Part shown: in pieces, positions 9,247-59,979 of the stretch
How the letters are laid out: each line of letters opens with the position of its first letter
Position numbering within the stretch: the first letter of the stretch is position 1
Origin: a phage
Strand: one strand, 5' to 3'
Sequence record: NC_101837.1
DNA length: 64,000 nt
Program-made: the position numbers and the translations under genes
Notes under the pieces: generated by a model
Told to the model about the DNA's origin: nothing
Databases searched by the model: none
What the model saw: the letters and a program-made list of their open reading frames with translations, nothing else

Positions 9247-9872
9247 GAGAGCGTCTATTATCCATAGACCAGTCGTTGACACACACAGCTTGCGTTGTAT
9301 GGGACGATGGAAAGCCTGTTCATAAGGTTGTGTTACGAACTCAAAGCTCATCTGCAAAAGAGAAGAAACCAGGGACGGTTTCTTTTGCAACAGCTGCTGA
9401 GCGTATTGACTGGATCTGCAAACAGGTCAGGTATTATATCCACACGTACGGCGTTGACACCGTAGTTATGGAAGGGCTTTCCTTTGGATCACGCGGAGAT
9501 GCCACACGTGAACTGGCTGGGTTGTTTTACGGTCTTGAAGTTATGCTTTGGGATGCTTTAGCTGATTGTGAAAATGACGGCCTGTTTAAGGTCCACACAG
9601 TGACACCAACAACTGCCAAAAAGTTTGCTCGTAGTCATCTTCCTGAGGAACTTGCTTTCGAGGAGAAGAAAAAGCTTGACAAAAAGACAGGTAAAGAGCA
9701 TACTGTGAAGAAACCTGTTACGATGGATAAAAAGTTGATGGTTAAGGCCTGCGAAGTATCTGAACCTGGGTTCCTAGATGGGATCAATTTGGTACAAGGT
9801 AAGGCCGATCTCGCAGATGCTTATTGGATAGGCAGGGCGCATCTGGAGGGATTATCGCAAAGCGTAAAATAA
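9243..9872 (+). CDS. RuvC-like Holliday junction resolvase (putative)
   Basis: SIDQSLTHTACVV N-terminal strand, VVMEG, DLADAYWIG pattern of RuvC/YqgF fold; weak. Confidence 0.5.
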   Translation: MRERLLSIDQSLTHTACVVWDDGKPVHKVVLRTQSSSAKEKKPGTVSFATAAERIDWICKQVRYYIHTYGVDTVVMEGLSFGSRGDATRELAGLFYGLEVMLWDALADCENDGLFKVHTVTPTTAKKFARSHLPEELAFEEKKKLDKKTGKEHTVKKPVTMDKKLMVKACEVSEPGFLDGINLVQGKADLADAYWIGRAHLEGLSQSVK

Positions 9873-10429
9873 GAAAGAGAGCTGTCAAAGCCCCCGTTCA
9901 TAACGGGTGGTTAAAAGATTCTAAGGACATAGCCAACTTTCGAAAAGAATTGTCAGAGGAGCAGGATGGTCTTGATCCGATCTTGTGCGAGCCACTTCGT
10001 AAGCCTTGTTTGGATCATGACCATCTGACTGGTCGTTGCAGGGGTGTTTTGTCACAATGCACTAATACCTTTGAGGGGTATGTGCTTAAATACTGGATGA
10101 AATACTGTAACGAGTATACAGATTGCAGTTTATCAGAGGCGTTGCGCCGGATGGCTGACTATTTGGAGAAAGACTACAGCGACTTCCCGCTCCACAAAAA
10201 CTACAGAGATGATATGACAAAGTTCTTGAGGAGATGCTCTAAAGCTACGATCATTGCACGAGCAGAATCAGATCTCAATCTTGTCATTAATCCAGAGTGC
10301 ACCAAGCATGAGGCTATTGAGTTCTACATGCAAGAGTTTATAAAGAAAACTGAGGAGAGAGATTTCTATGGGGATGAAAAAGGTATTCAATCCTTGCGAC
10401 TCAGTCCTGATCAGGATGAAATACCGTAA
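9824..10429 (+). CDS. endonuclease VII-like recombination endonuclease
   Basis: CLDHDHLTGRCRGVLSQCTNTFEG matches T4 endo VII zinc/HNH motif; no in-frame ATG before motif, overlaps upstream gene by ~50 nt. Confidence 0.65.
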   Translation: MDRQGASGGIIAKRKIRKRAVKAPVHNGWLKDSKDIANFRKELSEEQDGLDPILCEPLRKPCLDHDHLTGRCRGVLSQCTNTFEGYVLKYWMKYCNEYTDCSLSEALRRMADYLEKDYSDFPLHKNYRDDMTKFLRRCSKATIIARAESDLNLVINPECTKHEAIEFYMQEFIKKTEERDFYGDEKGIQSLRLSPDQDEIP

Positions 10430-10589
10430 CTGGAAAGGTGTTGTTGCAGATCGCTGCGTTACTGAGCCTAATTTATGGTTTGGCTCTACAGAGTATCATA
10501 AAGAAGAGCAGTGGTTGATGCGTGCCTTCGATGTAGACAAGGGCGAATATCGTGACTTCGCTTTAAAAGACATTCTTCAGTTTTACTAA
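10368..10589 (+). CDS. hypothetical protein (73 aa)
   Basis: ORF overlapping 3' end of previous gene in another frame. Confidence 0.35.
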   Translation: MGMKKVFNPCDSVLIRMKYRNWKGVVADRCVTEPNLWFGSTEYHKEEQWLMRAFDVDKGEYRDFALKDILQFY

Positions 10590-10601
10590 GGAATCTTAAC
10601 G

Positions 10602-11585
10602 ATGATGACAAAGTTAACTCTTGAGCAAATTTTAACACTAAAGCAACAGGGATACACTAATAGACAAATTGCTCGTGAATTTTTAGGCCGTGAGTCACGT
10701 GAGAGCTGGATCCGACTACAGCTTAAACGTGCACAGGAGAATATGTCAGAGATTGTAGGAGAAGCAACGGAGCGCTTCCTTGAAGAGCACAAAGGTGCTA
10801 AAGTTTGGGTGTATGATACAGAGACATCTCCAACAAACGGCTGGTTCTTTGGGCACTATAAGACCAACATTCAAACCTGCGGTATTGAAATTATGCCCTA
10901 CATGCTAACTTTCGCAGGTAAGTGGTTAGACAGTCCTAGTGTGGTTGACTGCGCTCTTCCCGATTACAAAATGTGGGATGAGGATATTCACAATGATCTC
11001 GAATTGATTCAGGATTTGTGGTATTATCTAGATAAATGTGATGTCGCAGTAGCCCACAATTCAGGTTTTGACTGTGGGTGGGCCAACCAACGATTTGCAT
11101 TTCACGGGTTGCCTCCAACAAGCCCCTACAAAGAGGTTGACACCCTTAAAATGATCAAGAAGGCATTCCGTTTGAATGCAAACACTTTGGAGTATGCATG
11201 CAAATACTTCCAACTGGCCCGACAGAAACTGATTGATCACACATTTGAAATGTGGATCAAGTGTGTCCATGGTGATCTTGAGGCATTTAAACAGATGCGG
11301 GAGTATAATGTTGGTGATATCCTGTCTCTGGAAGGACTGTATTTGCTGGCTCGCCCGTTTGCTAAGCAGCACCCAAACATGTCATTGTACTATCAAGACG
11401 AGGAGCCAAAAGTTCGTTGTCCACGCTGTGGTGGAGAACACCTTCACGAGGAAGAAGCTTTGGCGTATACTCAACTGAGTGCATTTAAAACATACCGCTG
11501 CGAAGGTTGTGGATCTGTTGTTCGTGACCGTAACAACATCCGCACCAGAGAAGAAATGAAAAACACCCTGATTCAGATAATCTAA
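10602..11585 (+). CDS. DEDD-family 3'-5' exonuclease with C-terminal zinc ribbon
   Basis: VYDTETS (Exo I), VAHNSGFD (Exo II), CPRCGG...CEGCG ribbon. Confidence 0.6.
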   Translation: MMTKLTLEQILTLKQQGYTNRQIAREFLGRESRESWIRLQLKRAQENMSEIVGEATERFLEEHKGAKVWVYDTETSPTNGWFFGHYKTNIQTCGIEIMPYMLTFAGKWLDSPSVVDCALPDYKMWDEDIHNDLELIQDLWYYLDKCDVAVAHNSGFDCGWANQRFAFHGLPPTSPYKEVDTLKMIKKAFRLNANTLEYACKYFQLARQKLIDHTFEMWIKCVHGDLEAFKQMREYNVGDILSLEGLYLLARPFAKQHPNMSLYYQDEEPKVRCPRCGGEHLHEEEALAYTQLSAFKTYRCEGCGSVVRDRNNIRTREEMKNTLIQII

Positions 11586-28490: not shown

Positions 28491-28724
28491 ATGAAAGTTA
28501 AATTTCTTACAGATTTAGGGTACCCTTCCTTGGTTGACTGTGTTGGTAAAATTGTGGAAGCAAAACGGCTATCTGCAAACGAGAATGTTGTCCTGGTTAA
28601 AGGGAAGGATTTACTAGCTGCAGGTGCAGAGTCTGGCAGGATCTCTCCTGATTATATGTATTACCTATCTTTAAGTAATCTGCCAGAGCGAGGCGGTAAA
28701 GGCCTTGAAGTTGTGGAGGAGTGA
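28491..28724 (+). CDS. small acidic protein, MKVK...VVEE family
   Basis: MKVKFL start, VKGKDLLAAGAESG motif, ends EVVEE; paralogous to 32053, 32267, 34139. Confidence 0.5.
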   Translation: MKVKFLTDLGYPSLVDCVGKIVEAKRLSANENVVLVKGKDLLAAGAESGRISPDYMYYLSLSNLPERGGKGLEVVEE

Positions 28725-28729
28725 CAGGT

Positions 28730-29254
28730 ATGCTTCTGATTAACTGGGAAGACCTCTATGGGGACAAAGACCCTGTTGCGTTTGTTGATCGTAGGTGGAG
28801 ATACACTGAAGAACAACTGGCGGCAAAAAATCTAACTGCAAAACGCAGAAAGATCATCCAGTGCAAGTACAAATACGCACAGTTTGCTGCAAAAGTGTCT
28901 CCACAAATCGAGAGCTTTGTGCTTAAATTGTATGACGAGTACCTCAAATCCAAATTGGATTTTGTGCAGGTGTACCGTGCACAGGTACGACCAGATACCA
29001 ACATGTGTAGATGGAAGGTTGTTTGTGAAGGTAAAGATTTGCCGCTCAGCTTGACAATTGAGTGGCGTTATGGGTATCATGAGTGTGGTCTGTATGATAT
29101 TTGGGATGTCATTGTAGATCCTGCTAAGCATCTGAACACAGAGGAGCTGGAATATATCAATAAGGTTATTCTCGATATGTTTTTCAGCTACACACATGAA
29201 AACTCTGAGAAAGAACGGGATAATTTTCTTGACACCCTCAGCGACCATTTGTAG
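28730..29254 (+). CDS. hypothetical protein
   Basis: ATG 28730 downstream of GGAGG; track start GTG 28721. Confidence 0.45.
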   Translation: MLLINWEDLYGDKDPVAFVDRRWRYTEEQLAAKNLTAKRRKIIQCKYKYAQFAAKVSPQIESFVLKLYDEYLKSKLDFVQVYRAQVRPDTNMCRWKVVCEGKDLPLSLTIEWRYGYHECGLYDIWDVIVDPAKHLNTEELEYINKVILDMFFSYTHENSEKERDNFLDTLSDHL

Positions 29255-29284
29255 TATACAATTTAACCTACAAAGGGAGGACCA

Positions 29285-29512
29285 ATGAGTATAAATGTTG
29301 TGCTAATAGGTTACCTGGTAATGTCCGTTATAACAGCGGTATTCTTGACAGGTGTATGCATCGTGTCCAGACGAAGGGTGAAGTTTGATGATTTTATCAC
29401 CATCATCACTGCTGCACCTTTTTGGCCTGTTGTTATCTTCATCGTAATAATGTGCCTAGTTGATTACTACAAGAATATCAGGAAGGAGAGTAGGGATGGA
29501 GACCGCACCTAA
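29285..29512 (+). CDS. small membrane protein (2 predicted TM helices)
   Basis: Two hydrophobic segments, basic loop. Confidence 0.45.
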   Translation: MSINVVLIGYLVMSVITAVFLTGVCIVSRRRVKFDDFITIITAAPFWPVVIFIVIMCLVDYYKNIRKESRDGDRT

Positions 29513-29648
29513 AACTATCTATACTGTTCTTAAAGAGATTGCGTTCTACGCAGATCTTAGCCAGGCACCTTTATGGGAAAAGAGCATGTATTTAAAATGG
29601 TGCGTTAATTTAGGGAGACCTTCCAGTGTTTCAAGCCATGTTTATTGA
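29496..29648 (+). CDS. hypothetical protein
   Basis: ATG after AGGAAGGAG. Confidence 0.35.
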   Translation: METAPKTIYTVLKEIAFYADLSQAPLWEKSMYLKWCVNLGRPSSVSSHVY

Positions 29649-29731
29649 GATGCTATCTGGGATATTGTTACTGGTAGCCATCTTAGGTGGTGCAGTTCTG
29701 ATGTATAACTATCTTGAAAAAGGAGACAGCA

Positions 29732-29917
29732 ATGGTAAAAAATAAATCTTTAGAGCAGGCTGAAAACCTTCTCCACGAGCTGGTAAAGGAGTGGAAAGTT
29801 GAATACTCAGATTTTAATGCACGAGAGGGTGAAGATTATTGGCCTACGGAGCGCTCAGAGGGCGAATGGTATCAAGATTTTATAGAGTGGTTATATCAGA
29901 CGTGCGATGAGGGGTGA
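29732..29917 (+). CDS. hypothetical protein
   Basis: Internal ATG of track ORF 29714..29917. Confidence 0.4.
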   Translation: MVKNKSLEQAENLLHELVKEWKVEYSDFNAREGEDYWPTERSEGEWYQDFIEWLYQTCDEG

Positions 29918-30384
29918 CGATGTTTGTTAAATATGTAAAAACGTGCCTCAACAGTCTTGGCAGAGAGCATTGGTACACCTTGCTTGAAAAAGGGGAAATT
30001 TTAACAAAATCTGGAAAGATAACTTTGATACCTCTTGATAGTAAAGGTAAAGACCCGTCACGACTTGTTATAGATGATTACGTTACAGGTGTGACGTTCG
30101 AGGTCTCTGTGGAGAGGTTAATACGCAGAGCTGGCGGCCCTTATGACCGAAGAGAGTATGTTTTCGATTCCGTTACAGAGATGGGGGAGCATCCGTCTTT
30201 AATGTTCAGGATGGTAATCAGAGATATGAGGTCATCTATAGATAGGATCGTAAAGGACATTAAGGAACCTTTTAGAGTAAAAGTTAAGAAGTTTTTCGAT
30301 TCTAAGATTAACATACTCGCCGTTGCACTAGGTGTAGTTCAACTTCTGTTAATTTTGCACTATTTTGAACTACTATTTAAGTAG
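29914..30384 (+). CDS. hypothetical protein (C-terminal hydrophobic helix)
   Basis: ATGA coupling. Confidence 0.45.
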   Translation: MTMFVKYVKTCLNSLGREHWYTLLEKGEILTKSGKITLIPLDSKGKDPSRLVIDDYVTGVTFEVSVERLIRRAGGPYDRREYVFDSVTEMGEHPSLMFRMVIRDMRSSIDRIVKDIKEPFRVKVKKFFDSKINILAVALGVVQLLLILHYFELLFK

Positions 30385-30446
30385 TAGTTGAGATATGGCA
30401 CAAAGGATGTGCCATAGTGAAATAAACTAAGAAAGAGGTAGAGAGA

Positions 30447-30794
30447 ATGCCAAAGATTAAAACGTTATTACTGTGGGTAGCTGTTTTAGCTTTTATAGGG
30501 TACTGGACTTGGGAAACTGAATTAAAAGATATCGGATATACCAGTCTTGAGAGCAAGGCGTGCATTGGCATAACCGATGCGTTCAGGCAAAATGCTATGG
30601 ATCATGAATGTGTTGATGCAGATATAGATGAGAAACTGTCTAAGGACAAAGATTTTTACCATGGGCATGCTTTACTTGATAGTGGTGACACTGTAGAGTT
30701 CTGGTCGTGGTTTCGTGAAGATGGAACAATAAAAACAGCAGTAAAGATCTCTAACAAAGAGTTAATGCTGTTGCAGCAAAAGGAGGCTCAATGA
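30447..30794 (+). CDS. hypothetical protein with N-terminal TM/signal
   Basis: LLWVAVLAFIGYW hydrophobic N-terminus. Confidence 0.45.
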   Translation: MPKIKTLLLWVAVLAFIGYWTWETELKDIGYTSLESKACIGITDAFRQNAMDHECVDADIDEKLSKDKDFYHGHALLDSGDTVEFWSWFREDGTIKTAVKISNKELMLLQQKEAQ

Positions 30795-31078
30795 TCTGGA
30801 TATCCTATGCTGATGGTACCATGCTGTATACTGCAGGTACCAGATATGAAGTTCAGGAGAACGATAAAAAATTTATCGTAAAAACATTTGACAAGGACGA
30901 CAACCTTTTGCTAGAATTGACTTACAAAGTTGGAGAGGTATCCAATATCCAGTTGGATTGTGGTCATAAAGATAATCCACTCAAAAAACCTGGAGTAGGT
31001 AAGGCTTCAGAAGAACGTCTGTCTCGTATTGCAGAAAGCGTTTCTCCCCAAAAATCTAAGAAGAGGACTAGAAAATGA
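30791..31078 (+). CDS. hypothetical protein
   Basis: Tiled ORF, ATGA overlap. Confidence 0.4.
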   Translation: MIWISYADGTMLYTAGTRYEVQENDKKFIVKTFDKDDNLLLELTYKVGEVSNIQLDCGHKDNPLKKPGVGKASEERLSRIAESVSPQKSKKRTRK

Positions 31079-31269
31079 AAAACTTACGTTTTAACACTTA
31101 TTACTACAACACATTGAATGATTTGTATTATATTGTTCGAAGTAAAAGTCCTGAAACAGTCCTATTCTGCCGCGAACCTTTCAAAGGGGAGGAAGTAGAG
31201 TCTGAGATGAATGTTAGCCAGATCACCTCTTTGTTGCTCTCAGGCGCAATGGAAGAAGCAATATTCTAA
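31075..31269 (+). CDS. hypothetical protein
   Basis: Tiled ORF. Confidence 0.4.
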   Translation: MKNLRFNTYYYNTLNDLYYIVRSKSPETVLFCREPFKGEEVESEMNVSQITSLLLSGAMEEAIF

Positions 31270-31287
31270 ACCAGGCAGGAGGGTTTT

Positions 31288-31476
31288 ATGAAGCACTATT
31301 GCCTGTCTGGTAGAATGGGTGCAGATTGTGATTGGGTTTTCTTAAAACTTGTCAGCATTCGAGAGTTCATCCCAGAGGAAGAGCAAGAAAGCGAGCTGAT
31401 GTCATGGATCAACCATTACGGTAACACTTTTCGGCATGTTAAGGTAGAAGAGTTGCCAAGCGAGGCTGAATTATGA
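31288..31476 (+). CDS. hypothetical protein
   Basis: RBS GGAGGG upstream. Confidence 0.4.
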   Translation: MKHYCLSGRMGADCDWVFLKLVSIREFIPEEEQESELMSWINHYGNTFRHVKVEELPSEAEL

Positions 31477-31769
31477 AACTTTTTGAGTGGTTTAAAAAGT
31501 TTAAATATAAAGCTGTAGCCATCGTGCCGTGGTCCATTCAGTGGGTTGATGAAGGTGGTCTACCGATACCTGGTGACAAAGATACTGGGTACTGGATTAT
31601 GATGGAGAACGGGTTTGGAAAGCGAAAGTATACGTGCACAAACTCTACTCGATCTGCACTTAATAGAGTGCCTGGTTACAAACTTATGGTTGTGTGGAAA
31701 ATGTCAGGCGTGCCTCCAGCCAATGCTCAATTTCTTACTGACAATCCGACCACGGTAGAGGGAGATTGA
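31473..31769 (+). CDS. hypothetical protein
   Basis: Tiled ORF. Confidence 0.4.
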   Translation: MKLFEWFKKFKYKAVAIVPWSIQWVDEGGLPIPGDKDTGYWIMMENGFGKRKYTCTNSTRSALNRVPGYKLMVVWKMSGVPPANAQFLTDNPTTVEGD

Positions 31770-31771
31770 TA

Positions 31772-32053
31772 ATGAAAAAGATTAACAGTAGTGAAGTAGA
31801 GTTTAAACTTGTCGGAAAAGGCACTTACTGGGAAGTTCGTCAAAAGGTATATTTGTTCGGTCTTATTCCCTACTGGTCTAAATTCTACTGGGGAGCTAAC
31901 GAGTTGGGAAGATACGCCACCAAATCAATGGCACTTATTGGTATAGCAGAGTACATTGCAGCCCGAGACAGGGTTGGAACCACTTATTACTACACTGCTG
32001 ACGATATTCGTAACAGTGTTTACGTCCCACAACCACCTGATGGAGACCGTTGA
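31772..32053 (+). CDS. hypothetical protein
   Basis: Tiled ORF. Confidence 0.4.
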   Translation: MKKINSSEVEFKLVGKGTYWEVRQKVYLFGLIPYWSKFYWGANELGRYATKSMALIGIAEYIAARDRVGTTYYYTADDIRNSVYVPQPPDGDR

Positions 32054-32277
32054 TGAAAGTTAAAGTTTTAGATTCAAGCTTCTATATTGGTCAGGAGCCT
32101 TTAGTAGGAAAAGTGTTTACTGCTGTCCCTAACGAAGATTACCCTGACCTTTTAAAAATAAAAGGAGCAGATCTTATTGCCGCTGGTGCATCTCAGGAAT
32201 GCTTTGACAGTCAGTGGACCTATAACTTTGCCCTAGGTGAGGATGTAGAGGTAGTGGAGGACGATCATGAAGGTTAA
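32053..32277 (+). CDS. small acidic protein, MKVK...VVEE family
   Basis: MKVKVLDSSFYIGQ, IKGADLIAAGASQE, ends VEVVEDD. Confidence 0.5.
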   Translation: MKVKVLDSSFYIGQEPLVGKVFTAVPNEDYPDLLKIKGADLIAAGASQECFDSQWTYNFALGEDVEVVEDDHEG

Positions 32278-32521
32278 AATTCTTGATTCTAACGTCTACT
32301 TGGGACAATCCTTCCTGAATGGAAAGGTCGTTCCTGCGGTATACTTTGAAGGGTTGCCGTGGGATGATCCTGTGCGGCAACATCACAGTTATGTAGGCCA
32401 CAACGTGGTGTTTATCTTGGGATCAGACCTGATCACCGCTGGTGCACCTGAATATTATTTCGGGGAAGAGTCCTACTATGCCTTTGGGGTAGGGTCAGAT
32501 GCAGATATTGTAGAGCTGTGA
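32267..32521 (+). CDS. small acidic protein, MKVK...VVEE family
   Basis: MKVKILDSNVYLGQ, GSDLITAGAPE, ends DIVEL; tandem with 32053. Confidence 0.5.
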   Translation: MKVKILDSNVYLGQSFLNGKVVPAVYFEGLPWDDPVRQHHSYVGHNVVFILGSDLITAGAPEYYFGEESYYAFGVGSDADIVEL

Positions 32522-32533
32522 TGGGTAACCGTT

Positions 32534-32932
32534 GTGAAAAATAAACTGTTTAAAGTTACAATGAAAATTCGCGGGGCTTGGAGCGTAAAGCAAGGGCGTA
32601 TCCCAGAATTTGAGAAAGACTTCTACGTAGTCTCCACCTCGGAGGAGGCTGCATGCTGGCAGGCTGGCTATGCATATGCAAGAACCTGGTACGAAGGATA
32701 CCAGACTGGTGGCTATGACGGAGAAATTATCAGCAAGGGTGTAGAAGAAATTAATGTGTTGACAAGTGAAAAAGTTTTTGTTATAGTGCATCCAGATTCC
32801 AGAGTGAAGCATTACTGGAATGCCAGAACAAAAACTTGGACACCGTTTGCAGATTCTGCTACACCACTTTTAAACCAGAAAGCTCTTGACTCTGTCCCGA
32901 GCTATGGGGTTGTTGAAGAAAAGCTAAACTGA
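32534..32932 (+). CDS. hypothetical protein, paralog of 34739..35134
   Basis: Shares HP(D/H)S..K.YYWN...K.WTP motif with 34739 gene. Confidence 0.45.
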   Translation: MKNKLFKVTMKIRGAWSVKQGRIPEFEKDFYVVSTSEEAACWQAGYAYARTWYEGYQTGGYDGEIISKGVEEINVLTSEKVFVIVHPDSRVKHYWNARTKTWTPFADSATPLLNQKALDSVPSYGVVEEKLN

Positions 32933-32949
32933 AACGGTGAGGTACTAAC

Positions 32950-33240
32950 ATGATGGATTTAGTTCTAGACACTGATAACACCGGAGCGTTTAAAAAGGAT
33001 GGTGTAACAAGCGTTGACCAATCATTCCCTGCCAAGATTGACTCAAAATGGACCTACAAGTTTGATGGAGAGATCTTCGCAAATGATGAGAAGGTTGTAG
33101 ATGCTGCAGCCATTTTGAACGCTCTAGGGTACGACCCTGTGAATTCTTTGATCAAGGATCCTGTTGAGTTTGCAGAGTATGTTCGAAAAATGGCAGATCT
33201 TGCTGTGGATATTTTAAAAACTATCGACAACAATCTGTAA
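32950..33240 (+). CDS. hypothetical protein
   Basis: Tiled ORF. Confidence 0.45.
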   Translation: MMDLVLDTDNTGAFKKDGVTSVDQSFPAKIDSKWTYKFDGEIFANDEKVVDAAAILNALGYDPVNSLIKDPVEFAEYVRKMADLAVDILKTIDNNL

Positions 33241-33246
33241 AAACTG

Positions 33247-33275
33247 TTGACACAACGCTTCAGATTTAGTATCAT
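33247..33275 (+). promoter_or_regulatory. sigma70-like promoter followed by leader hairpin
   Basis: TTGACA, 17 bp, TATCAT; hairpin AGAGGG/CCCTCT at about 33285-33303. Confidence 0.55.
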
Positions 33276-33322
33276 TGTTTTCAAAGAGGGTTTGGTTCCC
33301 TCTTCTTTAAAAGGAACACGTT

Positions 33323-33640
33323 ATGCAAATTGAAATCACTGGCAACGTAGAAATCACTGAAGGTATGGTGTCTTTCATTTCCCACAAAATGTCTAAGCTG
33401 GAGCGTTTGCATCCCTCTGCCAACTATGCACGTGTGAGTGTAAAAGTTGAAAATGATCACCAGGAAGTTATGGCGTTCATTTTTGACAATTCTGGAAAAG
33501 AAGTTATTGCCAAAGCTAAAGGCAGTGATGCTTACGAGGCAACTGACCGTATGGTAGATGTTGCAGCACGTCAACTGGCTAAATGCGGTGGAAAGAGAGG
33601 TAAGGGGAAAGGCAAAGTAAAGATTGACTTTAGAGAATGA
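33323..33640 (+). CDS. ribosome hibernation promoting factor / RaiA (YfiA) homolog
   Basis: MQIEITGNVEITEGM...KLERL...VSVKVEN...AKAKGSDAYEATDRMVDVAARQL is collinear with bacterial HPF/RaiA. Confidence 0.7.
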   Translation: MQIEITGNVEITEGMVSFISHKMSKLERLHPSANYARVSVKVENDHQEVMAFIFDNSGKEVIAKAKGSDAYEATDRMVDVAARQLAKCGGKRGKGKGKVKIDFRE

Positions 33641-33649
33641 GGTGCTACA

Positions 33650-33751
33650 ATGGGTGTGATCAAGAAATTAGTCCCAAATGTAGAGATTGCATGCTTTGAA
33701 ATTATGTTTGCAATCGCAGTTGTAGTTAATGTGTTAGGTTACGGCTATTAA
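33650..33751 (+). CDS. small hydrophobic peptide (33 aa)
   Basis: GAGGTG RBS, MGVIKKLVPNVEIACFEIMFAIAVVVNVLGYGY. Confidence 0.3.
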   Translation: MGVIKKLVPNVEIACFEIMFAIAVVVNVLGYGY

Positions 33752-33777
33752 TATCAAATAATTGAGGAGACCTCTAA

Positions 33778-34047
33778 ATGAAAATTAAATTATTCAAAAC
33801 TGAGCTGGCAGACAAAAACTGTGGACTGGTTGAAGGTATGATTGTCGAAGCACAACCAGTTGACTATATGAAGGTGGTTCGTGATGCCCTGGGTGAAGGT
33901 TTTGATCTGATGGAGCCAGCTCTGCGAGAAGATGTTATCGAGATGGCTAAAAAGCACACACCTGAAGGCATGGTGGTGTTTGTTGCACCGGGTAACGGAG
34001 AAGAGTTGATTGTAACTCCGGATGTGTATGAGATTGTAGAGGAATAA
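33778..34047 (+). CDS. small acidic protein, MK(I/V)K family
   Basis: MKIKLFK start, ends YEIVEE. Confidence 0.45.
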   Translation: MKIKLFKTELADKNCGLVEGMIVEAQPVDYMKVVRDALGEGFDLMEPALREDVIEMAKKHTPEGMVVFVAPGNGEELIVTPDVYEIVEE

Positions 34048-34138
34048 TCCTGCTTGGATTAGCATACTTCCTCGATAAGGAAGGTTTGTAATTATTTGTG
34101 GGAAAGGAATCCCAATCTCTTACCAGAGGTGATACTAT

Positions 34139-34402
34139 ATGATTGTTTATTTTAAAACTTCAGGTGGATACCCTGATTCTCAAAGCTTGATCGGAAAAAC
34201 GTGCACAGCATACTCACCTCTTGATGAGGAGGTAGGCGATATTCTACGAAATATGTATCGGATTGATCCTCAAGAAGCTTTTGATCAAAACCTTGTATTT
34301 GTCAAGGGCTCAGACATGAAGTCTTTGGGAGCATTCCCTGAAGCAGATGATGATGCCGTTTATTCGTTCATGACCCCTTTTGAAGCTATGGTTGTTGGGT
34401 GA
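34139..34402 (+). CDS. small acidic protein (family-related)
   Basis: VKGSDMKSLGAFPE resembles KG.DL..AGA motif. Confidence 0.45.
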   Translation: MIVYFKTSGGYPDSQSLIGKTCTAYSPLDEEVGDILRNMYRIDPQEAFDQNLVFVKGSDMKSLGAFPEADDDAVYSFMTPFEAMVVG

Positions 34403-34406
34403 TAAT

Positions 34407-34739
34407 ATGAAAGTACGCTTTATTGGTGAAACAATTCCTGTGCATCTCCGGTCGCCTGAGGATTCTGCAGATCTTGCATCTCAAAAGGCGAGAGGTTATG
34501 ATAAGAAAGTAACCTCAACTGATGTAGTGCTTGAGGCTACTAGTCTACCTGACCCTGCTGCATTCTTTAATCATTATGGGTACTATTTCAGCAATCTGAT
34601 GAATATCGGTGAGCTTGTGTTTATTAGTGGTGGAGAAATTGTTAGCAAGCTTGGCGGCGATCCGGATATCTTTCATGAAACCTGTCCTTTTGCATTTGTA
34701 GTAGGTTCAGATGTGGAAGTTATTGAGGAGGTGCGGTAA
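34407..34739 (+). CDS. small acidic protein
   Basis: MKVRFIG start, ends VEVIEE. Confidence 0.45.
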   Translation: MKVRFIGETIPVHLRSPEDSADLASQKARGYDKKVTSTDVVLEATSLPDPAAFFNHYGYYFSNLMNIGELVFISGGEIVSKLGGDPDIFHETCPFAFVVGSDVEVIEEVR

Positions 34740-35134
34740 TGGTAAGCCTATACCGTGTTGAGTATAGCTCAGATACTGTATACAACGTAAGAAGCAAAGA
34801 TCGCAGCGACAGAGTGCAAGAAATGTATGTTCTTGCCGACAGTCCGTTATCTGCAGCGTTCAAGGCAGGGGCTCTTGCATCTCGTTGGAAATTTGAAGGT
34901 GGATCTTTCTATGAAGAAACCCTTGAAGATTCTGTTGTTATTTCTTCTGTAGAGGTTTCAGATGACTACGAAGGGAAAAAGTTCGTAATGCGGCACCCAC
35001 ACAGCAACATTGCGTACTACTGGGATGTTCTGAACAACGAGTGGACCCCAGATCTTCAGAAGGCTACTGTGCTAACACCGTTTTTGGCAGATAAGTTCCC
35101 ACCAGAAGGTAATTTATCCGCACTGTTTCAGTAA
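34739..35134 (+). CDS. hypothetical protein, paralog of 32534..32932
   Basis: RHPHSNIAYYWDVLNNEWTP motif shared with 32534 gene. Confidence 0.45.
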   Translation: MVSLYRVEYSSDTVYNVRSKDRSDRVQEMYVLADSPLSAAFKAGALASRWKFEGGSFYEETLEDSVVISSVEVSDDYEGKKFVMRHPHSNIAYYWDVLNNEWTPDLQKATVLTPFLADKFPPEGNLSALFQ

Positions 35135-35152
35135 TTTTCTTGCACACAGGTG

Positions 35153-35181
35153 TTGACAACGCCAACCCTGTGTGAAATAAT
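35153..35181 (+). promoter_or_regulatory. sigma70-like promoter with -35 inside inverted repeat
   Basis: TTGACA, 17 bp, AATAAT; 8-bp inverted repeat CACACAGG/CCTGTGTG flanks the -35. Confidence 0.5.
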
Positions 35182-35213
35182 ACCTTCATCTTAACAAGAC
35201 AGGGGACCGATTG

Positions 35214-35471
35214 ATGAAGATTAAATTGAAAAACCTTGAAACGGCAGAGATTCAGGACGGTGTTGATTTCCGTTCTAAAGATGGTGACATCTTAGAGGTA
35301 AATATTCCAACCTACGAGCTGATTAAAGGTTTTGGCAACGTTCCGGAAGAGGATATTACAGAAATTCTTATGATGTTGATTCTTGACGGAACTGTGTTTG
35401 TAGGTGAAGGTGAGAACGCTATTGCAATCCCAGGCCATTTTTATGAAGTAGTTGACGAAGAGGTGCTGTAA
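35214..35471 (+). CDS. small acidic protein
   Basis: MKIKLKNL start, ends VVDEEVL. Confidence 0.45.
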   Translation: MKIKLKNLETAEIQDGVDFRSKDGDILEVNIPTYELIKGFGNVPEEDITEILMMLILDGTVFVGEGENAIAIPGHFYEVVDEEVL

Positions 35472-35822
35472 ATGAAAGTAGAAATTACCGGTTTTGATGT
35501 GAATGTGGTTCCGGAAGATATTTTAGCTAAACTTCCAGAAGGTTTTGGTAACGGCGTTGTGGTGGATGCTGTTCCTCCTACTAAAGACATTCTGCTGCAG
35601 TATGGTGTAGCAGAGGAAGATGTCGATAAAGTTCTTACAATGATGGCAATCGATCGTGTTGTCGTTGTTAAAGGTCTCGATAATTTTGAGAGTGATCCAC
35701 TGATTATTCGTGGAGATGACTACAAAATCATCGATAATGAAGGCCAAGAGTTCTATGAGCCTTGTGCAGAAGATATTCTTAACTTATTACTGGAAGCAGG
35801 CACCGAAGAGGAGGACGAATAA
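35472..35822 (+). CDS. small acidic protein
   Basis: MKVEITG start, acidic C-terminus. Confidence 0.45.
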   Translation: MKVEITGFDVNVVPEDILAKLPEGFGNGVVVDAVPPTKDILLQYGVAEEDVDKVLTMMAIDRVVVVKGLDNFESDPLIIRGDDYKIIDNEGQEFYEPCAEDILNLLLEAGTEEEDE

Positions 35823-36151
35823 TGAAGATTGACCCGTTACTGAAGGCTCGTGCAGAAAAAGCGTACACCATTAAGTTGACCAACTTGGTTCCTACTTGTC
35901 ATCCGGATGTAGGTTGGCCCGAAGGTTTGGTGGAGGGAACTGTAACAGCTGCATACCTTCCTAACATCAAATACCTCATGGAAATCTTGGAGCTGGATGA
36001 GGAAACGGCAGAAGAGTTCCAGTTGGACATGAAACAAAGTGGGACTCTGGTTATTCACGGGTGGTACAATACTAAAGATGCAGAAGACCCTCTGGTAACT
36101 TCTAATCTGGCATATGAAATCTTAGGGCCTTTGAACCTGGAGGAAGACTAA
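35822..36151 (+). CDS. small acidic protein
   Basis: ATGA coupling, acidic. Confidence 0.45.
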   Translation: MKIDPLLKARAEKAYTIKLTNLVPTCHPDVGWPEGLVEGTVTAAYLPNIKYLMEILELDEETAEEFQLDMKQSGTLVIHGWYNTKDAEDPLVTSNLAYEILGPLNLEED

Positions 36152-36438
36152 TGAAAGATCTGGTTAAGATTAAGATTAAAGATACCAATGGAGAACTCAG
36201 CCATTTTGGAATTAATGATGGTGACGAGCTGATCGCACACCTGCCTACCAAGGAAGTTGTAAGCAAAGCAGTTGCCGGAGAAGAAGATGCAATGCAGGCT
36301 GCAGGTGTGGATGAAAACTATGTAGCTATGTGCATGTGCCGAGATCAGGTTGTTCTGTATAAAGCGTATCGACCAAACGGAGCCACGGAGTGGCTTGTAT
36401 TCCGACCAGAAGGATATGAAATCTTAGAGGCACTATGA
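36151..36438 (+). CDS. small acidic protein
   Basis: ATGA coupling. Confidence 0.45.
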   Translation: MKDLVKIKIKDTNGELSHFGINDGDELIAHLPTKEVVSKAVAGEEDAMQAAGVDENYVAMCMCRDQVVLYKAYRPNGATEWLVFRPEGYEILEAL

Positions 36439-37532: not shown

Positions 37533-37537
37533 TGACA

Positions 37538-37564
37538 AAGAGGGGGGCTTGGGCCCCTCTTTTT
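37538..37564 (+). terminator. intrinsic terminator
   Basis: GC-rich hairpin AGAGGGG...CCCCTCT then TTTTT. Confidence 0.65.
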
Positions 37565-37914: not shown

Positions 37915-38222
37915 GGTGGATTATGTCTACAAAGGCGGCTAAATACTCCTATATGCCATCAACCTCTGCAGAGGTAGACTTTAGTTTCGATGTGTTTCCA
38001 CTGTTTGAGGTGATTCTGGCATACCCAACAATACTATCTACTCCTGAATCACTTGTACCTGTTAAGTTGCAGAACGCTATGCATTCTATGCACTACAACA
38101 ATAAATGTAGGCACAGATGGTGTCAGGACGAGGAAAAAGATTTGGATAGTTTGAGGGATTTTGACAGTCACCTTTTGACACCTTTCAGCTACTCCAACCT
38201 TGATAAGCCCTCATGGGTATAG
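37911..38222 (+). CDS. hypothetical protein (103 aa)
   Basis: ATGA coupling. Confidence 0.4.
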   Translation: MRWIMSTKAAKYSYMPSTSAEVDFSFDVFPLFEVILAYPTILSTPESLVPVKLQNAMHSMHYNNKCRHRWCQDEEKDLDSLRDFDSHLLTPFSYSNLDKPSWV

Positions 38223-38246: not shown

Positions 38247-38276
38247 AGGACGCTCTGTGGCGTCCTTTTCTTTATC
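38247..38276 (+). terminator. intrinsic terminator
   Basis: AGGACGC-TCTGTG-GCGTCCT then TTTTCTTT. Confidence 0.65.
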
Positions 38277-46400: not shown

Positions 46401-46622
46401 TTAGCAGTGACGTGGTTTGCAATGGCCCCCAGGAGTATTATCACCACGCACATTACAAGAAAAATTATCTCTGTCGTTGTTCGATCCATTGTTATAAAAT
46501 TCCTTAAGATCAGGCCTGAAAATAAAGCTTTCGTTATTGAATCCATCCCGCCAGGCGGCTGGCTTCAAATCTTCACTAAAGGGGTTAATTAACGTGGCAT
46601 TATTTAAACGGCTGGTCCACAT
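46401..46622 (-). CDS. hypothetical Cys-containing protein
   Basis: ATG 46622 with GAGAGGAA RBS; overlaps small hydrophobic ORFs in other frames. Confidence 0.35.
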   Translation of the reverse strand: MWTSRLNNATLINPFSEDLKPAAWRDGFNNESFIFRPDLKEFYNNGSNNDRDNFSCNVRGDNTPGGHCKPRHC

Positions 46623-46971
46623 ATTTTCTATTCCTCTCAAATAGGCGATCCGCCTCAGTTAAACAAATCTCATGGGCGTGATCTCTGGTTTTAGCTTCAT
46701 CGAAAACCTGTTGTGCAAGGCTGCAACGTAGGGAGACTGGAAGATCGCTGTAGTAGGCGTTGACAAATGTTTGAGCGTCGTACAGGTCTGAAAATACTTT
46801 ACCCTTTCTATTATTCCCCTTGTCAACAATTGCAAGGATAACAAGTACAATAGTTGCAACCACCCCCAGGAAAATAGATATAATAAACCATAAAAAAGCG
46901 GATCTACCCATCTTGCCAGCGATCCAGGCGTTGAACAAGGCAACTACTACAGCCAAAATAATAAATTCCAT
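46600..46971 (-). CDS. membrane protein (N-terminal TM helices)
   Basis: ATG 46971 with AAGAGG RBS inside track ORF 46600..47106. Confidence 0.45.
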   Translation of the reverse strand: MEFIILAVVVALFNAWIAGKMGRSAFLWFIISIFLGVVATIVLVILAIVDKGNNRKGKVFSDLYDAQTFVNAYYSDLPVSLRCSLAQQVFDEAKTRDHAHEICLTEADRLFERNRKYVDQPFK

Positions 46972-59040: not shown

Positions 59041-59404
59041 TCATCAGGTCTGCCATAGCGTCACCTACGAAGAGAACAACCACATCGTTGACAGCGTCAG
59101 CATCATCTTTGTTGACGTTGCTGAATTTAGGACACACAGCAATGATCATATAGACACCGTTACCAACCTGGACTGTCCGTGTGGTGCACATCATGGCGGT
59201 ATTTGTGCCTTCTTTGAAGGCGAAGCCTTGAAGACGCTCCTCTAAAGTGTTACCGGTAGATTTCAGAAGCGCCAGCTCGTCCAAGGCATAGATGATATCT
59301 CCGGAAGTTAGTGTTGCCTTGCCATCAGACACCATAATAACTCCATCAGCACCGTCAAGCTTAGAGGCTTCAAAGATATCAATATCCCAAATATTTTTCA
59401 TCAC
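59012..59404 (-). CDS. hypothetical protein
   Basis: Tiled ORF. Confidence 0.4.
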   Translation of the reverse strand: MMKNIWDIDIFEASKLDGADGVIMVSDGKATLTSGDIIYALDELALLKSTGNTLEERLQGFAFKEGTNTAMMCTTRTVQVGNGVYMIIAVCPKFSNVNKDDADAVNDVVVLFVGDAMADLMNAGEAANED

Positions 59405-59721
59405 GCTTCCTCTTCGTCTAAGGAGTTGAAGATTTCACCGAAGTATTCTAAGACTTCTAGCTCCCGTGTGGTGCAGAAAACACAGTCACCGTTGTCATCC
59501 TCGATAACTGCCTCTTTACCCAGCACATCTACTTCAAGTTTATCGTTCAACAGGACAGCTCCTGTGTAAACTTTGTCGGCTGTGCAGTCCCGAAAAGCAG
59601 AGTCCTTCTCCAGATAGTCTGGCTTAACCTTGGCTTTAATTCGTTGATATTGTTTGGTCATTGCTGTGGTCCCCTTTCGTTTTGATAGGGCCATTATATT
59701 AGGCCCCATCGCTATTGTCAA
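59401..59721 (-). CDS. hypothetical protein, paralog of 59725..59979
   Basis: Shares KP(D/E)..E.D.AF(R/K)DCT and D.V.CT motifs with neighbour. Confidence 0.45.
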   Translation of the reverse strand: MTIAMGPNIMALSKRKGTTAMTKQYQRIKAKVKPDYLEKDSAFRDCTADKVYTGAVLLNDKLEVDVLGKEAVIEDDNGDCVFCTTRELEVLEYFGEIFNSLDEEEA

Positions 59722-59724
59722 GTA

Positions 59725-59979
59725 TTAATGCTCAGGTTTTACAAAAACCACTTCATTAACAGTGCACCAGACAGAGTCTCCTTCATCATCTTTAAAGGTA
59801 AGGCACTGTGCTGAGTTTTCCAGCTCATCAATCTCTTCTTGTGATAAAGGAGCCCCTTCTTCCAGAAGGGCTTTTACCAGAGGGTTCTCACAAAACTCCG
59901 CTTCATAAATTGCACCGATTGTGCAATCTTTAAAAGCTCGGTCATTTTCAACGCATTCTGGCTTCAAAGTAATTTTCAT
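59725..59979 (-). CDS. hypothetical protein, paralog of 59401..59721
   Basis: Tandem duplicate. Confidence 0.45.
   Translation of the reverse strand: MKITLKPECVENDRAFKDCTIGAIYEAEFCENPLVKALLEEGAPLSQEEIDELENSAQCLTFKDDEGDSVWCTVNEVVFVKPEH

Follow-up and report, generated by a model that had tools for sequence, protein, structure and literature searches.

Two paralogs of one lineage-restricted family, apparently of ancient divergence, in the small-gene array of an rV5-like phage

Introduction

rV5-like phages are used in O157 biocontrol and form part of the BASEL collection, and paralog families are common among phage accessory genes. The stretch of DNA analysed here (64,000 nt, record NC_101837.1; "the window" denotes this whole stretch) comes from an rV5-like E. 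coli phage (Vequintavirus) with 99% identity to PMBT16 and RudolfGeigy, and contains no Rfam or tRNA genes. Two members of its small-gene array, here called A and B, lie 2.2 kb apart (Table 1) and are the orthologs of rV5 gp137 (ORF142, YP_002003639; 98% identity) and gp144 (ORF149, YP_002003646; 100% identity), respectively. A reading made from the sequence alone had proposed that the two are a dispersed paralog pair that arose by duplication within the array, citing a conserved motif near the C-terminus of both proteins. The locus therefore raises the question of whether the resemblance extends beyond that motif and, if it does, how old the pair is, how it arose and what its products may do. 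The rV5 genome paper makes no mention of paralogy, and its Table S3 lists both orthologs as hypothetical proteins without homologs (Kropinski et al. 2013, PMC3606486). The best explanation of the data as a whole, held here with good confidence, is that A and B are paralogs whose divergence is ancient, both belonging to a single lineage-restricted family, phrog_7379 (the Y family).

Table 1. Coordinates, within the window, of genes, motifs and promoters around the paralog pair
Feature	Position	Strand	Basis and remarks
X-family gene (phrog_5009), first of two upstream of A	32050-32277	+	phrog_5009, E 2e-38
X-family gene (phrog_5009)	32267-32521	+	BLASTP, phrog_5009; ends 12 nt before the GTG of A
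Paralog A (Y family, phrog_7379)	32534-32932	+	exact ORF including stop codon; 132 aa, GTG start
Conserved motif of A, residues 85-104: VHPDSRVKHYWNARTKTWTP	32786-32845	+	sequence alignment
Sigma-70-type promoter (rV5 P144)	33247-33275	+	TTGACA-17-TATCAT, 11/12 positions; annotated in rV5; starts the HPF-to-B transcription unit
X-family gene, first of two upstream of B	34139-34402	+	hhalign against X profile 96.8%, E 2.5e-10
X-family gene (rV5 ORF148)	34407-34739 (ORF from 34380)	+	hhalign against X profile 93.7%, E 2e-7
Paralog B (Y family, phrog_7379)	34739-35134	+	exact ORF including stop codon; 131 aa, ATG start
Conserved motif of B, residues 85-104: RHPHSNIAYYWDVLNNEWTP	34991-35050	+	sequence alignment
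Sigma-70-type promoter (rV5 P150)	35153-35181	+	TTGACA-17-AATAAT, extended -10 TG; annotated in rV5; directly after B

Results and Discussion

Similarity between A and B beyond the shared motif

In a BLASTP comparison, A and B share 28% identity across 119 aligned positions (E = 7e-10), so that ~119 of the 131 residues are covered, which bears out the proposed paralog pair. The Smith-Waterman score of 112 (z ~17.7) was equalled by none of 2000 shuffles. When compared with the 396 window ORFs that are 45 aa or longer, the two match each other at E = 2e-7, and no other partner of either is found at E ≤ 1e-3. Both proteins also match phrog_7379, whose 131-position profile already unites them in one family and aligns at positions 1–131 with residues 2–132 of A (E = 5.2e-74) and residues 1–131 of B (E = 2.1e-66). 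No DNA-level repeat remains detectable between the two genes, as expected given 28% protein identity. A possible third copy on the reverse strand, at 46401-46640 (-), reaches only E = 0.02 against the Y profile and was rejected as chance because its ORF is overlapped by other ORFs on both strands.

The motif itself is present at residues 85–104 of both proteins, although the pattern first proposed for it is slightly off: A carries HYWN rather than YYWN, and the column given as K/I is really K/A. H86, P87, W95 and W102 are invariant across the family alignment of seq­uences from seven members, and in the AF2 model of B the motif is predicted to form a loop and a beta-hairpin, with strands at 94–96 and 101–103. 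The most striking identity between A and B is packed into these ~20 residues, and the C-terminal tail beyond them has no significant similarity when taken alone (p = 0.23), as might be expected if a short motif had arisen by chance or convergence in two unrelated small ORFs. However, the similarity is not confined to the motif. Apart from the full-length BLASTP value and the single PHROG profile that covers both proteins end to end, the N-terminal 80 residues of A and B remain related once the motif is removed (Smith-Waterman z 4.7; 3 of 2000 shuffles), and motif-free profiles of the A-type and B-type N-termini match each other at an hhalign probability of 95.4% (E = 1.8e-8). The nearest structural neighbor of the B model in BFVD, moreover, is the A ortholog of phage V18 (Foldseek E = 2e-3, TM 0.48–0.50). 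A chance or convergent motif is thus rejected as exceedingly improbable, and A and B are almost certainly true homologs. Because they are homologous over nearly their full length and share both a genome and a small-gene array, they are paralogs, as the sequence-only reading had it.

Structure prediction, suggested in that reading as a check, gave models of limited quality: both AF2 models appear to show beta-beta-alpha-beta followed by a C-terminal hairpin, with a pLDDT of 59.4 for A (alignment of 2 sequences) and a moderate 74.9 for B (alignment of 7 sequences). Foldseek searches of PDB and BFVD yielded no significant match except the paralog itself, and for the B model no PDB entry scored at E ≤ 0.001 (best E = 0.35); this absence of a fold match is soft because the model quality is moderate. 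The insignificant matches include small alpha/beta phage proteins of 60–75 aa (one DpnD/PcfM-like, one DUF4494), which recall the beta-beta-alpha-beta start of B, and chains of ~165–180 aa from 80S ribosome entries (eukaryotic ribosomal protein). With PDB E values of at least 0.35, BFVD E values of at least 0.1 and query-normalised TM scores of 0.3–0.4, they provide no evidence of relationship, and the ribosomal chains (probability ≤ 0.44, TM 0.3–0.4) were discarded as noise.

Distribution and age of the two subfamilies

The Y family was found only in Vequintavirus and two uncultured sister lineages by an HMM search of 1.84 billion proteins and by scans of IMG/VR, metagenomes and genomes. The exhaustive HMM search of these 1.84 billion representatives returned five real matches, and three others (P0008 to P0010) are repeat-protein artefacts. 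A word-indexed protein search found nothing beyond near-identical proteins, the genome scan added no relatives, and the extra loci from IMG/VR and metagenomes are only rV5-like or like L002, a locus of the A-type discussed below. Likewise, tblastn of A against 50,697 phage records (E ≤ 0.01) recovered rV5-like genomes only. The RefSeq note on gp137, "similar to Listeria phage A118 hypothetical protein", could be reproduced neither by this tblastn nor by the exhaustive HMM search.

Within the genus, full-length copies of A occur in 116 phage records and of B in all 118 records that have B, at 95–100% identity, and the two copies lie ~2.2 kb apart in all complete rV5-like loci. Outside the genus, one uncultured sister lineage supplies P0006, with which A groups at 38% identity, and the other supplies P0004 and P0012, with which B groups at 40% identity; the split (A,P0006 | B,P0004) is supported by 1000 of 1000 four-point bootstrap replicates. 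Because A and B each pair with a different sister lineage, the split between them is older than Vequintavirus, and by this sequence grouping the two are anciently diverged and not recent duplicates. Within 5–6 kb on either side, L002-like loci carry an A-type gene only, and a second kind, the L004-like loci, a B-type gene only.

A difference in charge accompanies the split. The pI values of A and B are 7.8 and 4.7, and the contrast is conserved between A-types, which are near neutral (7.8, 6.8), and B-types, which are acidic (4.7, 5.1, 4.9). These protein sequences divide phrog_7379 into a near-neutral and an acidic subfamily, each of them conserved; the PHROGs entry is without annotation, structure or literature and does not record two old subfamilies co-resident in Vequintavirus. 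With two charge-distinct subfamilies, gp137 and gp144 form a pair well matched for functional work.

Both copies are maintained as genes. Across eight genomes, pN/pS is 0.077 for A and 0.042 for B, indicating strong purifying selection on both; 29 of 36 variable sites in A and 31 of 37 in B fall at codon position 3, and neither gene has an internal stop. The orthologs at 38–40% identity are likewise full-length. The GTG start of A is supported by the alignment of its residues 4–9 with B, P0004 and P0006. A and B are therefore real coding genes, and neither is a decaying relic. A is dispensable, as it is deleted in the viable phage EduardKellenberger, in which a deletion running from the "glycosidase" gene up to the last 33 codons of A leaves a phage that grows on K-12.

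Repeated gene order and the origin of the pair

A second small-gene paralog family, here called X, lies in the same array and is physically interleaved with A and B. Its members are shorter (75–110 aa) and have no sequence relation to A or B (hhalign probability 0.1%). Five X genes are present in the window (starting at 28491, 32050, 32267, 34139 and 34380), and they produce the same gene order twice, X-X-A at 32050-32932 and X-X-B at 34139-35134. In addition to the evidence in Table 1, the gene at 34139-34402 matches the X profile by hmmsearch at E = 4e-6 and phrog_5009 weakly (1e-4), the gene at 34407-34739 matches the X profile at E = 9e-5, and 32267-32521 is similar to 34380-34739 by Smith-Waterman comparison (p = 9e-6). 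The repeated X-X-Y order suggests a block duplication inside the array, in which the copied unit was probably larger than one gene, and the presence of X paralogs points to duplication as a recurrent way in which this region grows. The X relationships do not mirror such a block duplication, however: 32050-32277 and 32267-32521 are closer to each other (BLASTP 40% identity, E = 2e-13) than to either 34139 or 34380, and the latter two are weakly similar (p = 0.016). The earlier proposal of duplication within the array is favored by gene order.

The same arrangement could reflect functional coupling, if Y proteins were obligate partners of the upstream X proteins in a two-gene cassette, for example one that joins an effector to its chaperone or regulator. 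Of the five X genes, four form the pairs directly upstream of A and B; the start codon of B overlaps the stop of its X gene (TAATG), so that the two are translationally coupled, and is preceded by a Shine-Dalgarno sequence, GAGGAGGTG; A begins 12 nt past its own X gene; and X-X-B is retained in L004. However, no Y gene adjoins the fifth X gene (28491-28724), the A-type gene of L002 is preceded by a gene from outside the X family, and the block-1 X-X pair persists in L004 without A. The last two observations show that X-Y coupling is not obligatory. The obligatory cassette was rejected on these grounds, and a partnership of this kind is judged quite unlikely.

Under the favored reading, an X-(X)-Y block would have been duplicated inside the array in the ancestor of the three lineages, after which each sister lineage would have lost one Y copy. 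Alternatively, A and B may be xenologs: one ancestral gene would have diverged in separate Vequintavirus-like lineages, and a B-type ancestor of rV5 would have gained the A-type gene by recombination during co-infection. Such a history needs one gain, compared with one duplication and two losses, and it fits the finding of one type per sister lineage within 5–6 kb on either side. Neither protein-database search revealed a second subfamily beyond the five clusters, the lineage of origin having been checked for two of them, P0004 and P0006. The region is also mosaic: in L004 the slot of A is filled by a 96-aa gene that is unrelated to it, and L002 carries a homolog of this 96-aa gene two genes ahead of its A-type gene. 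On the other hand, the repeated X-X-Y order in rV5 is explained more simply by block duplication. In L002, the orthologs of 31766-32053 and 33778-34047 bracket the A-type gene, a position that corresponds roughly to that of A in the array and fits vertical descent, and the 38% identity between A and P0006 is no higher than an old vertical relationship predicts. The tree fits both histories; acquisition from a relative is the less likely of the two, and in-array block duplication is the somewhat more probable origin of the pair.

Expression and possible roles

A and B would be transcribed, within a long array of small genes, from predicted host sigma-70-type promoters. The position of P150 directly after B suggests that its unit ends with B, and a further promoter-like site lies inside A, at 32759-32787. 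A search for transcriptomes of rV5-like phages returned none. Both proteins are predicted to be soluble, with no hydrophobic segment and a 19-residue Kyte-Doolittle average that peaks at ≤ 1.06, and would be non-virion proteins of ~15 kDa. A role as minor virion or assembly proteins has some basis in an array neighbor, rV5 gp152 (window 35822-36151), which is listed as "structural protein (MS evidence)" in rV5 Table S3 (PMC3606486), so some array products do reach the particle. The A and B orthologs, given there as gp142 and gp149, are without MS evidence in that same table, A is deleted in a viable isolate, and both genes are in a unit with replication and nucleotide-metabolism genes and not in the morphogenesis unit. 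A place in the virion or its assembly is therefore very unlikely.

Known families offer little guidance. For A and B, Pfam-A has no family at E ≤ 1, the best NCBIfam scores (E ≥ 0.04) are far below the cut-offs, PADLOC gives no match, and the best hit of a PDB sequence profile search is not significant (E = 0.37). No paper on either protein turned up in the literature under its accession, locus tag or PHROG id. According to Silas et al. (bioRxiv 10.1101/2023.04.06.535777; Nat Commun 2025, PMC12373910), most fast-evolving phage accessory genes likely antagonise host defences or other viruses. A and B resemble such genes in being small, uncharacterised and lineage-restricted, in their variable presence and in their clustering within an accessory region of a virulent coliphage. 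Unlike the genes of that study, they are not fast-evolving within the genus (95–100% identity, pN/pS < 0.1) and nothing connects them with a defence system, and no rV5-like genes were found in its accessory-gene screen (PMC12373910).

It is tentatively suggested that A and B are accessory factors that interact with the host, either in its takeover or in counter-defence. They may act by stoichiometric binding through a putative surface formed by the invariant residues R49, H86-P87, W95, W102 and T110, and the two could be specialised for different partners. A bolder proposal, and a long shot, is that the Y fold is one unrecognised by current libraries, with the aromatic and basic cluster of R49, H86-P87, W95, W102 and T110 forming a pocket that binds a ligand or a protein, and that A and B represent different specificities within a new class of counter-defence protein, such as an immune-signal sponge or a defence-effector inhibitor, perhaps together with X as duplicated two-component cassettes.

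At least three paralog families are present in the array, namely Y with A and B, X with its five genes and Z, a looser group, and the small-gene array of rV5-like phages probably grew partly through old duplications. The A-B pair is genuine, but pairs of this kind are fairly ordinary in the accessory-gene regions of phages; its significance is modest, and it opens no long-standing question. The array region as a whole contains roughly 45 hypothetical genes.

A paralogous gene pair in the small-gene array

Genes A and B lie within a series of ~45 short plus-strand genes, nearly all labelled 'hypothetical protein'. Over bases 32000–36000 the sequence shares 98–99% identity with upwards of 100 coliphages of the rV5-like group (Vequintavirus), PMBT16, RudolfGeigy and rV5 included. 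Their rV5 counterparts are gp137 (ORF142) and gp144 (ORF149), respectively. The sequence-only reading proposed them as duplicates on the basis of a motif near the C-terminus, and the coordinates it gave for both copies are exact ORFs. The pair is real and old. BLASTP aligns the products over 119 positions at 28% identity (E 7e-10); in an all-against-all comparison of the 396 window ORFs the pair scores E 2e-7, and neither gene has another partner at E<=1e-3. None of 2000 shuffles reaches the Smith-Waterman score (z 17.7). The motif is present at residues 85–104 of both proteins, with HYWN in A rather than the YYWN first read there. The N-terminal 80 residues, which exclude the motif, are also related, both as single sequences (p about 1e-3) and as A-type and B-type profiles (hhalign 95.4%, E 1.8e-8), and each protein matches phrog_7379 (the Y family) end to end. 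Together with the BLASTP and shuffle scores, these results show that the similarity extends past the short motif. PHROGs already places A and B in one group; the paralog pair itself is so far undescribed.

In a comparison of eight rV5-like genomes, A has a pN/pS of 0.077 and B one of 0.042, and third codon positions account for 29 of 36 and 31 of 37 variable sites, respectively. All 118 records that carry B encode it at full length. The annotated start of A varies among GenBank records: GTG 32534 in rV5, FV3, ECP32 and Gotham, ATG 32561 in RudolfGeigy and VB-EcoM-WM, and 12 nt further upstream in Pr121LW. GTG 32534 is supported because residues 4–9 align with the N-termini of B and of its relatives P0004 and P0006 and fall inside the first predicted strand.

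Coordinates of the features discussed
Feature	Position	Strand	Remark
A	32534-32932	+	Y family, 132 aa
B	34739-35134	+	Y family, 131 aa
X gene pair upstream of A	32050-32277, 32267-32521	+	
X gene pair upstream of B	34139-34402, 34407-34739	+	
Fifth X member	28491-28724		
Putative Z group	33778-34047, 35211-35471, 35472-35822, 36151-36438		Acidic small proteins
Possible Z member	35822-36151		Ortholog of rV5 gp152
HPF gene	33323-33640		Between A and B
Promoter-like site	32759-32787		Inside A
Bidirectional terminator-like hairpin	37537-37562		GC-rich
Second terminator	38247-38266		
Further adjacent paralog pair	59401-59721, 59725-59979	-	

Distribution and age of the two copies

By tblastn against 50,697 phage records, A and B are confined to rV5-like genomes (95–100% identity). 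Of the eight hits from an exhaustive HMM search covering 1.84 billion representative proteins, five are real; the other three were discarded as repeat-protein artefacts. Among full-length relatives, only P0006 (A-like, 38% identity), from metagenomic contigs of 121–139 kb, and P0004/P0012 (B-like, 40% identity) are divergent; P0004 derives from a 124 kb contig of an E. coli assembly and from Logan contigs. The closest known relatives of the P0006 and P0004 contigs are Vequintaviruses, which match them at ~73% nucleotide identity across 8% and 38% of the region, respectively, and the contigs represent sister lineages (L002-like and L004-like, respectively) without isolates in the searched phage collection. 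Scans of IMG/VR and metagenomes added solely rV5-like and L002-like loci, and none of the bacterial genomes scanned encodes a relative. Assemblies also contain truncated or fused A variants (P0003, P0005 and P0013). The RefSeq note that rv5_gp137 (NC_011041.1) is 'similar to Listeria monocytogenes phage A118 hypothetical protein NP_463491' could not be reproduced; at E<=0.01 tblastn gives no match beyond rV5-like phages, and the HMM search returns no such relative. Eighteen GenBank records titled 'Campylobacter phage' (MG0656xx) are 98–100% identical here to rV5-like E. coli phages, and their host label looks doubtful.

Four observations place the separation of A and B before the divergence of these lineages. 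First, both copies are present, ~2.2 kb apart, in all complete rV5-like loci; within 5–6 kb either side, L002-like loci have the A-type copy only and L004-like loci the B-type only. Second, the L004 B-type gene occupies the B slot, behind an ortholog of 34380-34739, with an unrelated 96-aa gene filling the A slot, and the L002 A-type gene falls in the interval matching A. Third, the split of A and P0006 from B and P0004 has bootstrap support of 1000/1000. Fourth, charge consistently separates the subfamilies, A-types having pI 7.8 and 6.8 and B-types pI 4.7 to 5.1. The pair may have arisen by duplication followed by differential loss, or one of the copies may have been acquired from a relative.

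In L002 and L003 a 370-aa TnpB-like gene (9532-10644; PF01385 OrfB_IS605 and PF07282 Cas12f1-like_TNB) interrupts the small-gene array as an insertion. Directly behind the B ortholog in L004–L006 (e.g. L004 6467-6763), a 98-aa gene matches PF27050 (Phage_P22_Y8K6); the window has no counterpart behind B.

A repeated gene order

The pair belongs to a gene order, X-X-Y, that occurs twice; in the accessory region of a phage this is nothing out of the ordinary. Of the five members of the X family (phrog_5009 and relatives), which is unrelated to Y, four sit immediately ahead of A and B, two before each. X proteins share the C-terminal pattern VF(V/I)xGxD...G...(Y/F)xFxxGxDxE(V/I)VE, and pairwise shuffle tests among them score p between 1e-13 and 5e-4. 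The B-upstream genes are recovered as members by hhalign (96.8%, E 2.5e-10; 93.7%, E 2e-7) and by hmmsearch with a profile excluding the tested genes (E 4e-6 and 9e-5). The repeated order points to duplication of an X-X-Y block, which is likely but short of proven, since relationships within X do not cleanly mirror it and X-Y adjacency is absent in L002.

The Z group, whose members score p between 6e-5 and 1e-3 in pairwise shuffle tests, may be a third, looser set of paralogs within the array. On the minus strand, two further adjacent paralogs share 31% identity across 77 aa (E 5e-7, window ORF set). GC skew switches sign near 38000, where the plus-strand array ends and minus-strand genes begin.

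Expression context and possible function

A is the second-last gene ahead of the sigma-70-type promoter P144, and B closes the unit that P144 opens. The first gene of this unit encodes a ribosome hibernation factor/RaiA homolog (HPF; PF02482, E 1.3e-12), also kept in the L004 sister lineage. A promoter-like sigma-70 site close to consensus (TTGACA-17-TATAGT, extended -10 TG, 11/12 positions) within A, upstream of its motif region and ORF143, is not on the rV5 authors' promoter list (PMC3606486).

Searches of Pfam, NCBIfam, PADLOC and PDB sequences give no match for either protein, and both are soluble, with a hydrophobic segment in neither. The AF2 model of B (7-sequence alignment; pLDDT 74.9, pTM 0.69) opens at the N-terminus with two long strands, followed by an 18-residue helix, a disordered loop and more strands, among which the YW...W hairpin lies behind the HP-S loop. 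Foldseek finds no significant PDB match for this model; the sole BFVD match is the A ortholog from phage V18. A is dispensable, because phage EduardKellenberger (MZ501061.1), a K-12 isolate, has lost the stretch between the 'glycosidase' gene and the final 33 codons of A. Neither product has virion MS evidence in rV5 (PMC3606486). Tentatively, A and B could be non-structural accessory proteins that would bind host or phage partners via a conserved aromatic and basic surface, the two copies presumably having diverged in specificity.

The EduardKellenberger deletion, a natural one (compared with window ~29200-32830), joins what is left of A to the 'putative glycosidase' gene and removes about a dozen adjoining small genes from a viable phage. 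rV5 gp152 (109 aa) is tagged 'structural protein (MS evidence)' (PMC3606486), which is unexpected for the small-gene array.
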